From Bacteriovoracaceae bacterium (GTDB lineage Bacteria; Bdellovibrionota; Bacteriovoracia; Bacteriovoracales; Bacteriovoracaceae), in contig JBFGZE010000074.1 in NCBI GenBank assembly GCA_041586955.1, forward strand, positions 1 through 17,468: a DNA stretch of 17,468 nt. Direction: 5' to 3'. The notes under the pieces are model-generated. The model worked only from the letters and a program-made list of their open reading frames with translations, was not told where the DNA came from and did no database searches. A program made the position numbers and the translations under genes. Positions within the stretch are counted from its first letter, which is position 1; each line of letters starts with the position of its first letter. Positions 1 to 17,468 of this stretch are shown here, one piece after another.

Positions 1-416
1 ATGCGGCTATCGGGGCGGTCTACTTTATTAATAACTAAGGCAATTTTGAGATCGCGCTCAAGCGCCTTTTGTAAAACAAAACGAGTTTGCGGTAATGGGC
101 CTTCAGCAGCGTCAACTAAAAGACAAACACCATCAACCATAAGGAGGGATCTTTCTACTTCTCCACCAAAGTCAGCGTGCCCGGGGGTATCGAGAAGGTT
201 AACTTTAACGCCTTTCCAATAAGTGGCGCAGTTTTTGGCAGAAATGGTGATCCCTCTTTCTTTTTCGATATCTCCAGAGTCCATCACTCTTTCTTCAACA
301 GCTGCGCGCGGGTCAAAGGCACCGGATTGTTGAAGAAGCCCGTCGATGAGGGTAGTTTTGCCGTGGTCAACGTGGGCGACAACAGCGATATTTTTTAATG
401 AGGACCATTCGTTCAT
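1..416 (-). CDS. typA: Translational GTPase TypA/BipA, N-terminal part (continues past the left edge)
   Basis: Manual minus-strand translation from ATG at 416: [32 protein letters not shown]...[20 protein letters not shown]...[46 protein letters not shown]...[11 protein letters not shown]. It has the G1, G2, G3 and G4 motifs and the TypA-typical [11 protein letters not shown]. An AAGGA Shine-Dalgarno (SD) sequence lies upstream. It is missing from the ORF track because there is no stop codon in the window. Confidence 0.96.
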
Positions 417-15429: not shown

Positions 15430-15768
15430 AAAAACTCCATGGTTTTTTCCAAATTATCCAAATTGCTCTTAGTAAGCAAGACCAAAGCAAAAAGTTTTCA
15501 ATTTTAATTAGAATAGCGTTGCTTATTGCTCCGTGCGTAATAATTATTTTTTGTAATATGACAATTATGGCATCTCGTTAATTTGTAAAGATTTGAAAAT
15601 ATATTGATAATTAAATAATTAACATTGAATTTATTGCTAAAAAAACCGCTATTAAAGGTCATAAAGCGATGTAGGCAATTCAAGTGCAGATTCGGTTTTG
15701 CCGCAACCAGGTTGACCCTCATCATGCTCAATCGGAGCTTGGGTCGGCGTATGGTTTTAGGAGAGAGG

Positions 15769-16332
15769 ATGGAGATTTCATTTGAACAAACGAAAGAGAC
15801 AAGTATGAGTAATAAAGAAATGTGTATGCAATCGCCACAAGTGGCGAAGTTCGCTTCTCTTGGAATTTTGGCCGCAGAAAAAAAAAGCGGAGATCGGCGG
15901 GCGATAAGCAATAACGAGTTGATAGATATAAAGAAAATACCAGTAGGGAAGTTAAAGGTTCTTTTAGTTGATGATGAGGAGCTTATATGTGAGTTTCTCG
16001 AGTTGGTATTAGCTGATCATTTTGAAGTAACGGCAGTAAGTAATTCAGAAGTAGCACTTAAACTCATTTATACAGAAAGATTTGACGTGGTGATAACTGA
16101 TATAAAAATGCCCAAAGTCTCTGGAGATACAATTGCCATAGCAGTTAGAAGTGAGCAGCCGCACGCCCATTTGATTATTATGAGTGGGAATCTTCGAGGT
16201 AACCTACCGGTATCATTATTAGCATGTGAACCTTTTTTATTTTTGGCCAAACCTTTTTCCTCTCCAAAGGAGTTAAAAGAAGAAATATTTGAGTTTGTTA
16301 ATCGTGAAAAAGAGAGCTGTGGACAAACCTGA
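15769..16332 (+). CDS. Stand-alone receiver-domain (CheY-like) protein with an N-terminal extension
   Basis: KVLLVDDEE...DVVITDIKMP...IIMSG...LAKPFS. ATG at 15769 has an AGGAGAGAGG SD, making it a better start than TTG at 15625. An alternative start at 15804 is possible. Confidence 0.8.
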   Translation: MEISFEQTKETSMSNKEMCMQSPQVAKFASLGILAAEKKSGDRRAISNNELIDIKKIPVGKLKVLLVDDEELICEFLELVLADHFEVTAVSNSEVALKLIYTERFDVVITDIKMPKVSGDTIAIAVRSEQPHAHLIIMSGNLRGNLPVSLLACEPFLFLAKPFSSPKELKEEIFEFVNREKESCGQT

Positions 16333-16337
16333 TCCAT

Positions 16338-16367
16338 TTGTTTCGATTGATCACTTTATTGTATGAT
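16338..16367 (+). promoter_or_regulatory. Putative sigma70 promoter giving a leaderless mRNA for the binding protein
   Basis: TTGTTT(16338-16343)-N18-TATGAT(16362-16367)-N6-ATG(16374), with no SD. Confidence 0.45.
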
Positions 16368-16373
16368 CGCCCC

Positions 16374-17096
16374 ATGAAATCAATACTGCTTTTTCTATTA
16401 GTATTGGGATTTATACCTATAGAGGCAGGAACTTTACTTGTTGGGTTCAGCGATGTTCCTCCTCATATTACCATGAAACAAGGAAAAGTATTTGGCCCAG
16501 CGAAAGATTATATTGATATGGTGGCCAAGAAAGCGGGCCATAACCTCATTTGGGTTAAGGTTAATTCGAAAAAAGCAGTTGAAATGCTACTTGATGGTCA
16601 ACTCGACTTTTATTATGCATTCGCTCATTCTAGTAAACGAGATTTAAATCTTCAATTTGTGAATACTCCACTCGCGGAAACGATGTATTGTTTTTTGGTC
16701 CACAAAAATGACCCAATTACTTATGAAGAGATTATGAATACTTCGATCAAAATTTTAAGACCTCTTGGATTTGTTATCATCGACGCCTTAAGTAAAAAAA
16801 GAAATGATTTTATTGAAATTGGAGGGGTCGAGCATCGACCGCGACTCATTCAATTAATTTTAAGTAAAAGGGTAAGAGTTGCTTATCTCCCCGCATGTGA
16901 AATAACGAATGATATTGTTGGAAATGAAAATATTCGCATGATAAATATTAAAAATAGTAAAACCAAATTCTATTTTGCTTTTTCAAAAAAAGTTAAACCT
17001 GAGGTTGTTAAAAAGTTTGATGAAATTTTGGCAGAGCTCACCGAGCAGAAAAATAGTTATCTTGAATATTACAGCAGGACCCTCAAAAACAAATAA
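16374..17096 (+). CDS. Periplasmic substrate-binding protein (family 3-like), orphan
   Basis: Signal peptide MKSILLFLLVLGFIPIEA. DVPPH...G...DYI, EMLLDGQLDF, SSKRD, LIQLILSKRV and YFAFSKK follow the SBP_bac_3-like pattern. No permease or ATPase gene is adjacent. Confidence 0.78.
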   Translation: MKSILLFLLVLGFIPIEAGTLLVGFSDVPPHITMKQGKVFGPAKDYIDMVAKKAGHNLIWVKVNSKKAVEMLLDGQLDFYYAFAHSSKRDLNLQFVNTPLAETMYCFLVHKNDPITYEEIMNTSIKILRPLGFVIIDALSKKRNDFIEIGGVEHRPRLIQLILSKRVRVAYLPACEITNDIVGNENIRMINIKNSKTKFYFAFSKKVKPEVVKKFDEILAELTEQKNSYLEYYSRTLKNK

Positions 17097-17119
17097 ATTA
17101 TTTTCTAGTAATAAATGCC

Positions 17120-17153
17120 AAACGTACTATTTTTCTTAGTATGTTTATTTTTT
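17120..17153 (+). terminator. Possible intrinsic terminator after the binding-protein gene
   Basis: 10-bp AT-rich stem AAACGTACTA/TAGTATGTTT (one G-U pair), 7-nt loop, followed by ATTTTTT. Confidence 0.45.
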
Positions 17154-17251
17154 GATTCTTTACCTTTTCCAAAAAATGTTGAATATTTTTTAAAATTAAT
17201 GACCTTAGAATCTATTGGGCCCGTTTTGTTTTATTGGTTTTTTATTTTTCC

Positions 17252-17468
17252 CTCTCGCAGAGTGAACGAGAAGCGTAAGCGCCGAGAGATCGAATCCATT
17301 ATTTCAAAGAACTTTAGAATATCAAGGATGAGTGGTGGCCCGGGCATCTACAATGCGGCAAAGGCCTACGGGCTTTGAAGCGTTGGAGTTTACTCTCTCG
17401 CAGAGTGAACGAGAAGCGTAAGCGCCGAGAGATCGAATCCATTATTTCGAAGAACTGTAGATTATCAA
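17252..17468. repeat. Non-coding tandem direct repeat, period 143 bp (copies 17252-17325 and 17395-17468), truncated by the window end
   Basis: Both copies read CTCTCGCAGAGTGAACGAGAAGCGTAAGCGCCGAGAGATCGAATCCATTATTTC(a/g)AAGAACT(t/g)TAGA(a/t)TATCAA. The first 54 nt are identical and 71/74 match overall. The period is not a multiple of 3. Confidence 0.95.
17333..17344 (-). other. tRNA 3'-end-like fragment (acceptor 3' strand, discriminator base, CCA), Phe-like
   Basis: Minus strand CCCGGGCCACCA; B. subtilis tRNA-Phe ends CCCGAGCCACCA. No T-arm or 5' half lies upstream within the window, so this is not an intact tRNA. Confidence 0.5.

Follow-up and report, generated by a model that had tools for sequence, protein, structure and literature searches.

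The 143-bp tandem repeat at the right end of the DNA analysed here, a 17,468-nt stretch from a Bacteriovoracaceae bacterium that we call the window, is very probably a tRNA-linked repeat (TLR-type) array attached to the 3' end of tRNA-Leu(CAA). Each unit carries a core of two hairpins, P1 and P2, and is closed by a copy of the tRNA end, designated X. The presence of these tRNA-end copies, together with the presence of the core beside many further gene termini in related genomes, makes a small mobile DNA module the likely identity of the unit, rather than a CRISPR-like or RNA-producing element. On balance we favour the reading that the unit is a small non-autonomous mobile DNA cassette, which would enter and multiply by recombination at the tRNA-end copies.

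The array at tRNA-Leu(CAA)

The two repeat copies begin at 17252 and 17395, with a period of 143, and agree at 71 of 74 positions, the first 54 nt being identical; all these values, given in an earlier note on this DNA, were reproduced. With an E value of 2e-28, the within-genome match is far above chance, and none of the further direct-repeat families in the window's listing exceeds 31 nt. As the note had observed, the copies still match at the last base of the window, and the match grows to 94 nt with 5 mismatches once contig C87 is added. The window is the entire contig C74 of a genome assembly of 194 contigs, and its last 121 nt (17348..17468) equal the first 121 nt of C87, one of two such joins among the 194 contigs. 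The extension to the right that the note had proposed was thus obtained through this overlap: C87 completes the linker with its final 7 bases and then carries tRNA-Leu(CAA) (129-212, minus strand), whose 3' end lies 8 bases past the window end, and the joint to an extra unit was recovered as well.

Read along the tRNA strand, the locus consists of the tRNA, a series of units each composed of an AT-rich linker, P2, P1 and X, and a partial unit ending at 17252. X (17333..17345, minus strand) closes each unit and is a 13-nt exact copy of the tRNA-Leu(CAA) 3' end, comprising the T-stem end, acceptor strand, discriminator and CCA; it is the longest suffix repeat and is spaced at +143. P1 (17348..17388, plus strand) is a long bulged hairpin whose base stands 2 nt after X, with 13 pairs, 9 of them with two-sided changes, and 88% of cells paired. 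The P2 region of the full unit (17395..17440, plus strand) is a purine-rich stem capped by GC-GTAA-GC at 17416-17423, and the covariance model built from 21 copies matches 17344-17437 at 76.7 bits. The AT-rich linker (17441..17468, plus strand) runs on to base 128 of C87 and abuts the tRNA 3' end. The distal truncated unit (17252..17332, plus strand) is made of the P2 half, with its own GC-GTAA-GC mini-hairpin at 17273..17280 (plus strand), and the AT-rich linker only, lacking P1 and the far-side tRNA-end copy; it differs from the tRNA-proximal unit at 5 positions and is a partial match to the covariance model built from 4 copies.

This order identifies the GC-rich 69-nt segment between the two copies (57% GC) as P1 plus X. 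The segment is constant, holds X and the best-conserved hairpin, and is the conserved core of the unit, so that the option of a variable spacer, which the earlier note had left standing, is refuted. The note had therefore seen a real repeat in the wrong phase, because the unit closes at the tRNA-end copy and the array hangs on the tRNA. The AT-rich DNA that it reported to the left is likewise present (23% GC at 17100-17250), and it is no leader but the intergenic flank (17097..17251), outside the unit, between a convergent SBP_bac_3 ORF (16338-17096, plus strand) and the array. Since 143 is not divisible by 3, we treat an 87-aa ORF at 17115-17378 as spurious. Each linker holds a sigma-70-like site by consensus match only (4 found, with 1.8 +/- 1.6 expected), and no terminator-like site was detected in the window at 16900-17468.

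Four neighbouring proteins were scanned, namely the SBP_bac_3 protein, a receiver-domain protein, an epimerase and a 96-aa ORF without a Pfam family, and none of the effector genes suggested in the note was found among them. The receiver-domain ORF (15625-16332) has a listed TTG start that is probably too far upstream, as the Pfam match covers residues 112-221 only. The 96-aa ORF (L001:290-580), upstream of the tRNA on the opposite strand, has a signal-like N-terminus and two GYCSPL..AG.KNCKK-like cysteine repeats. Among the 33 tRNA genes called in the genome, tRNA-Leu(CAA) alone has a downstream end-repeat longer than 9 nt (within 1500 nt downstream, less at contig ends), and neither covariance model detected a second locus in the source genome.

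Four public DNA runs, all from one study, contain the array stretch; they may include the source sample and are thus not independent support. In contigs of three of the four, the end of a unit of the tRNA-proximal type is joined to the start of another unit (L001 position 141 back to 1, a closed 143-nt loop), and since this joint is missing from the assembly, the array has at least two full units and one partial unit. The 121 nt shared by C74 and C87 are where identical extra units were collapsed by the assembler, as seen in a closed 173-nt unitig with the joint 141 to 1, and the collapsed extra copies in the public-run contigs are identical. That units and joint recur in these contigs contradicts the assembly artefact that the earlier note had considered. 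The depth in run X2 (junction 38.6, shared part 56.8, flanks 8.2 and 7.0) would fit about 6-7 units, a rough figure, as depth is no copy number, and run X1 (10.6 against 2.6-4.6) suggests fewer units than X2. Although unitigs give the same signal for both arrangements, we prefer tandem copies over a free 143-bp circle as the simpler reading. Apart from its link to the tRNA, the source locus is an ordinary collapsed repeat that accounts for the contig break.

Fold and distribution of the hairpin core

In a MAFFT alignment of 21 copies, 15 of the 20 pairs show changes on both sides, where the pairs were picked from these same sequences and kin are not independent. The covariation score was 0.449, a value reached by 0 of 500 shuffles, compared with 0.169 for shuffled alignments, slid-partner controls gave at most 0.136, and covariation was similar on a model-fitted alignment. 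The mini-hairpin, with the family consensus RC-GTNA-GY, is paired in all cells with four G-C to A-T swaps (G-C in 17 and A-T in 4 of 21 rows). The GC-GTAA-GC mini-hairpin pointed out in the earlier note is thus real and covarying, while its GNRA-type label does not hold for most copies, because the family loop is G-T-N-A (GTTA, GTCA, GTAA). Similarly, the CTCTCG/CGAGAG stem that the note described exists as sequence, and its 61-nt fold is unremarkable (z = -1.24), the outer P2 stem being paired in only 51% of the cells of the family alignment, for which alignment or purine-purine pairs may account. Taken together, the extra copies and the covarying structure bear out the note's suggestion of one end of a longer structured tandem array able to form single-strand hairpins.

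With RNA and DNA parameters alike, 19 of the 21 copies have the lower folding energy on the window plus strand, which is antisense to the tRNA. In the alignment fitted to this strand, G-T cells number 26 versus 15 A-C cells. At its apex P1 often carries a G-N-A or A-A-A triloop, and in most copies the loop of the mini-hairpin reads GTTA or GTCA. Loops of the GNA and GNNA kinds have an unusual stability in DNA rather than in RNA, which may be a hint of folded single-stranded DNA. Folded as a single sequence, the 149-nt unit gave z values of -0.18 and -0.28, which are not significant. The antisense strand had the lower minimum free energy in 13 of 13 family units, and the same is true of E. coli tyrV. 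On the transcribed strand, pairing of the copied end with the unit body reached 7 bp in the source unit against a shuffle mean of 6.8, and one of 13 family units beat its shuffles (4/200), whereas the closing stem of E. coli tyrV has 10 bp (0/200 shuffles). A tRNA-like closing stem was thus not seen on the transcribed strand of the family units.

The search of the genome and its relatives with blastn, as the note had proposed, recovered the unit in 6 of 237 family genomes, the source included. Covariance models reached further, with 14 of 151 family genomes for the 4-copy model and 24 of 151 for the 21-copy model, and the latter had no match in 121 genomes of other families sampled across the phylum; the counts of 24/151 and 0/121 are lower bounds, owing to strict pre-filters and at most 28 candidates scored per genome. 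A GTDB-wide pattern scan returned 12 loci, six of which score with the 21-copy model, are titled Bacteriovoracaceae, Bacteriovoracia or Halobacteriovorax and repeat known loci, the other six being chance matches. Genomes with the core have 1-6 model matches each, and loci in relatives 1-3 units. Of 29 other tRNA-Leu(CAA) loci, retrieved from among 52 matching genomes, only three carry the unit, all in one genus. In one genome (L193, G107:C1), 19 nt of the tRNA-Leu(CAA) 3' end are repeated 85 nt downstream of the gene, and the P1-P2 core is absent there.

In viral contigs, a first pattern scan gave two matches, both by eye inside coding sequence, and a second gave 29, none convincing, of which the best was marginal at 24 bits and was not accepted. 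Phages and plasmids yielded no blastn match. The Rfam check proposed in the earlier note returned no match at E <= 1 for the window at 16900-17468, and at nine loci the gathering score was reached by tRNA and tmRNA alone and by none of the units. We found no published work on this element in Bacteriovorax or Halobacteriovorax within the literature searched, which comprised few subscription papers.

Target sites, duplications and module order

The contexts of the core were surveyed in 64 matches of the 21-copy model outside the source genome, of which 13 were left unclassified. Twenty-nine of the 64 lie antisense behind a called tRNA, representing nine isoacceptors (Leu CAA, TAA and TAG, Pro, Met, Ser, Asp, Arg and Gly). 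In 25 of these 29 the end of the resident tRNA is duplicated at the P1 base (duplication score >=10), and the four rows without duplication are three truncated copies and one contig end. At 14 further sites the core starts at a same-strand stop codon with an offset of +4 to +11, guaA and groEL being among the genes concerned (a 15th, truncated tRNA-linked row was excluded from this set), and none of the 14 shows a duplication. At three others the core starts at a same-strand CCA. Two rows lie upstream of tRNA-Gly and tmRNA with the 5' ends of those genes duplicated, and three rows have 40-48 nt duplicated at coding regions. In all tRNA-3' and RNA-gene-5' rows the structured strand reads X-P1-P2-linker-X-gene, with X always copied from the resident gene. 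The copied end in relatives measures 9-17 nt by eye, and the unit length is 136-162 nt across 13 units.

Cores at orthologous sites agree at 88-100% within a genus and at 74% for G141, while cores at different targets in one genus agree at 86% (tmRNA-like versus Gly sites) and 82% (Leu(TAA) versus Pro). In the core tree, Met and Ser cores form a clade at 98/99, and 19 of 30 inner branches are open.

Several variants were noticed during this survey. In G096, a P1-only variant (L031 and L042) stands at the 3' ends of two frames of about 490 codons, with 40-42 nt of the gene end duplicated. Behind tRNA-Gly(GCC) of G175 (L072:1280-1640), three modules in +/-/+ orientation, with both the tRNA end and a downstream stretch of about 30 nt duplicated, look like nested insertions. 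In G028:C1 (L089 and L096, near 1986704 and 1949506), one full P1-P2 module is followed by tandem arrays of about 41-43 nt that consist of the P2 half alone. Downstream of tRNA-Met in G061 (L017:1438-1490), a 15-nt unit is repeated about three times beside a partial P2 motif. A second tRNA-linked module was also seen behind tRNA-Leu(CAA) and tRNA-Asp, consisting of a terminator, a hairpin-rich body and a longer tRNA-end copy (L015:1660-1805 in G145, L014:1195-1345 in G015 and L029:1655-1850 in G011); in these three genomes it gave no RtT match.

The order of modules is opposite in two congeners: where E stands for the unit and T2 for the second tRNA-linked module, G015 has tRNA-E-E-T2 and G145 has tRNA-T2-E-E, the last E being partial, with the E units identical at 143 of 145 positions and the linker moving together with its unit. 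It is possible that this swap arose by differential deletion of a longer ancestral array. Longer DNA is found in the same places. In the tRNA-Pro array of G013, a 4.3-kb island lies between units (L053:5017-8921, G013:C4) and carries cation-efflux, cytochrome c-FTR1 and iron-dependent repressor genes as well as a 140-aa ORF with a Recombinase domain; in G147, tRNA-Pro and its unit stand 8.9 kb apart, the DNA between them being bounded by two tRNA-end copies. The order swap and these inserts between X copies indicate that the X copies bound modules that are gained, lost or reordered. Truncated terminal units are frequent, as in the source array, G145 and G149.

A linked mobiliser was sought around these sites. 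For tyrosine integrases, a PF00589 match within 10 kb was found at only one of 33 sites (ten genomes, hand count), and none was present on C74 or C87. Just 3' of the match in L030 (G151:C112), about 50 nt from the module, a broken frame bears the tyrosine-recombinase C-terminal motif HMLRHSFATHLLE, identified by eye, and is the only close integrase remnant seen. At 10 of the 12 PF01797 (Y1_Tnp) loci from 5 genomes, the 21-copy model gave no match better than E 0.49, and no RAYT link was thus apparent. HUH elements follow a lagging-strand rule, and we observed no replichore bias, the structured strand being G-rich at 12 of the 20 antisense sites and at 11 of the 16 on the sense strand.

Known systems and competing explanations

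In the part of the published account consulted (PMC8144298), TLRs number 22 in E. coli, spread over ten loci with 1-5 at each, and their last 18-19 bp repeat the end of the upstream tRNA or rRNA; they were first described in 1978 and are presented there as having no known function. Other relevant literature, also consulted in part, is bioRxiv 10.1101/2024.07.17.603846. We found a 178-bp period, a 19-nt copy and three units at E. coli tyrV, and 181 bp, 19 nt and three units plus a partial one at serX. The source array has the same architecture, being directly 3' of a tRNA, with a 13-nt end copy at +143 and at least two full units and one partial unit, and it shares with the E. coli arrays (tyrT-tyrV/rttR, serX) the tandem non-coding units, each closed by a copy of the gene end, the often truncated last unit, and small hairpins that combine purine-rich stems with GNA or GNNA loops. 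It differs from them in its copied end of 13 nt rather than 18-19, which leaves it outside the E. coli TLR family in the strict sense, in hairpins that are antisense to the tRNA, those of E. coli being on the sense strand, in the lack of the closing stem that tyrV forms with its copied end, and in a core that also occurs at stop codons and RNA-gene 5' ends. Homology at the level of models was not detected, as the 21-copy model scores rtT at 5.6 bits (E 0.75). RtT RNA (RF00391) shares the genomic setting and was rejected as an identity, since none of five genomes matches it at E <= 1 while the E. coli control does, and its pairing of the copied tRNA end with the unit body is absent on the transcribed strand.

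Other known elements resemble the unit in part. REP, REPIN and BIME sequences are extragenic palindromes mobilised by RAYT (HUH) transposases, and like them the core is a short, lineage-restricted, dispersed hairpin module at gene ends, found in both orientations and once in a +/-/+ cluster (G175). It differs from them by its 1-6 matches per genome, by standing beside no Y1_Tnp gene, by flanking duplications of 10-50 nt and by the lack of strand bias. The attL and attR sites of genomic islands that target tRNA genes are direct repeats flanking the island; here too the duplicated tRNA 3' end flanks an insert, and the X sites also take long inserts, but the insert of about 130 bp lacks both ORF and integrase, is amplified in tandem and in every case bears the end of the resident gene. 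Att sites of an integrative island were set aside on the integrase survey (one of 33 sites). A CRISPR or TIGR-like array was rejected because the segment between the repeats is conserved, the collapsed copies are identical and no effector is adjacent. Integron attC sites carry RYYYAAC/GTTRRRY on one long bottom-strand hairpin, which the two-hairpin fold and the GTAA and GTCA variants do not fit by eye.

As regards origin, the explanation we prefer, a mobile cassette, can be outlined as follows. The two-hairpin core would act as folded single-stranded DNA, in the manner of REP-like elements, and a putative trans-acting enzyme would place it exactly at gene termini. With X on both sides, recombination or slippage from X to X or unit to unit could then expand, contract and reorder the array, the distal end would erode, and islands may use spare X copies as landing sites. 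The units would be transcribed by read-through from the tRNA promoter, and such RNA would probably be a by-product. Repeated small RNAs, as the earlier note had suggested, are conceivable by this route; it is the other strand, not that of the tRNA transcript, that bears the conserved fold. Counting against the cassette are the failure to find a mobiliser, the want of convincing matches in viral contigs, phages and plasmids, the lack of replichore bias, the possible origin of the order swap by deletion, the weak tree, and the stop-codon and CCA sites, where the fold is on the transcribed strand and fits an RNA role equally well.

An RNA role is the basis of an alternative that we judge unlikely, though deserving of attention, in which the unit encodes a functional, structured RtT/RrB-type RNA, made in one transcript with the tRNA, released by tRNA-processing nucleases that cut at the copied CCA ends, and acting as small RNAs or protein sponges. 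There is precedent in the consulted part of PMC8144298, where three rRNA-linked E. coli TLRs are transcribed, processed and bound by CsrA and Hfq, and the copied end is proposed as a processing signal. Every unit ends in CCA, the window lacks a terminator-like site at 16900-17468, and the fold would be in the transcript at 17 sense-strand sites. On the other hand, the tRNA-linked copies carry the conserved fold antisense, the antisense energy being lower in 13 of 13 units (though also in tyrV), the unit offers the copied end no strand to pair with (one of 13 above shuffles, against 10 bp in tyrV), and the distribution is patchy.

Somewhat more doubtful is amplification by slippage without an enzyme, in which a REP-like module settles beside a tRNA, after which the polymerase slips between the base of the hairpin and the tRNA T-arm and so copies the module plus the tRNA end, the array being a passive, selfish by-product. 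This would account for X always coming from the resident gene and being fused to the P1 base, for the frequently truncated ends (source, G145 and G149), for the missing linked enzyme and for a duplication that depends on orientation (25/29 versus 0/14), but it leaves unexplained the near-base precision at new gene ends and the E unit on either side of another module, and no replichore bias accompanies it. We regard as highly improbable the remaining proposal, that the unit is a scar: an island or prophage would have integrated at a tRNA 3' end and later been deleted, leaving an arm of its attachment site behind. Duplicated tRNA 3' ends are a classical island signature, the guaA and groEL 3' ends, which are island hot spots, are among the sites, and long inserts do lie between X copies in G013 and G147; the core, however, was not convincingly present in viral contigs, phages or plasmids, an integrase is near only one of 33 sites, and a uniform length of 136-162 nt (13 units) with a fold kept by compensatory changes is unlike random scars.

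Returning to the mobile cassette, the copying of the resident end, the stop-codon sites without duplication, the change of module order and the antisense fold favour a DNA-level mobile origin over an RNA function. A broader proposal may be put forward as a speculation that we judge unlikely: the P1-P2 core could be the founding example of non-autonomous single-stranded DNA elements of about 100 nt, inserted precisely by a putative enzyme at gene termini (tRNA 3' and 5' ends, tmRNA and stop codons) with orientation-dependent duplication, and TLRs in general might be their amplified products, serving both as cassettes that are shuffled and as decoy attachment sites that keep islands and prophages from integrating in tRNA genes. 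The Bacteriovoracaceae core bears on the origin of TLRs because one recognisable hairpin can be followed across many targets, and the idea of a mobile origin can be checked in cultured Bacteriovoracaceae.
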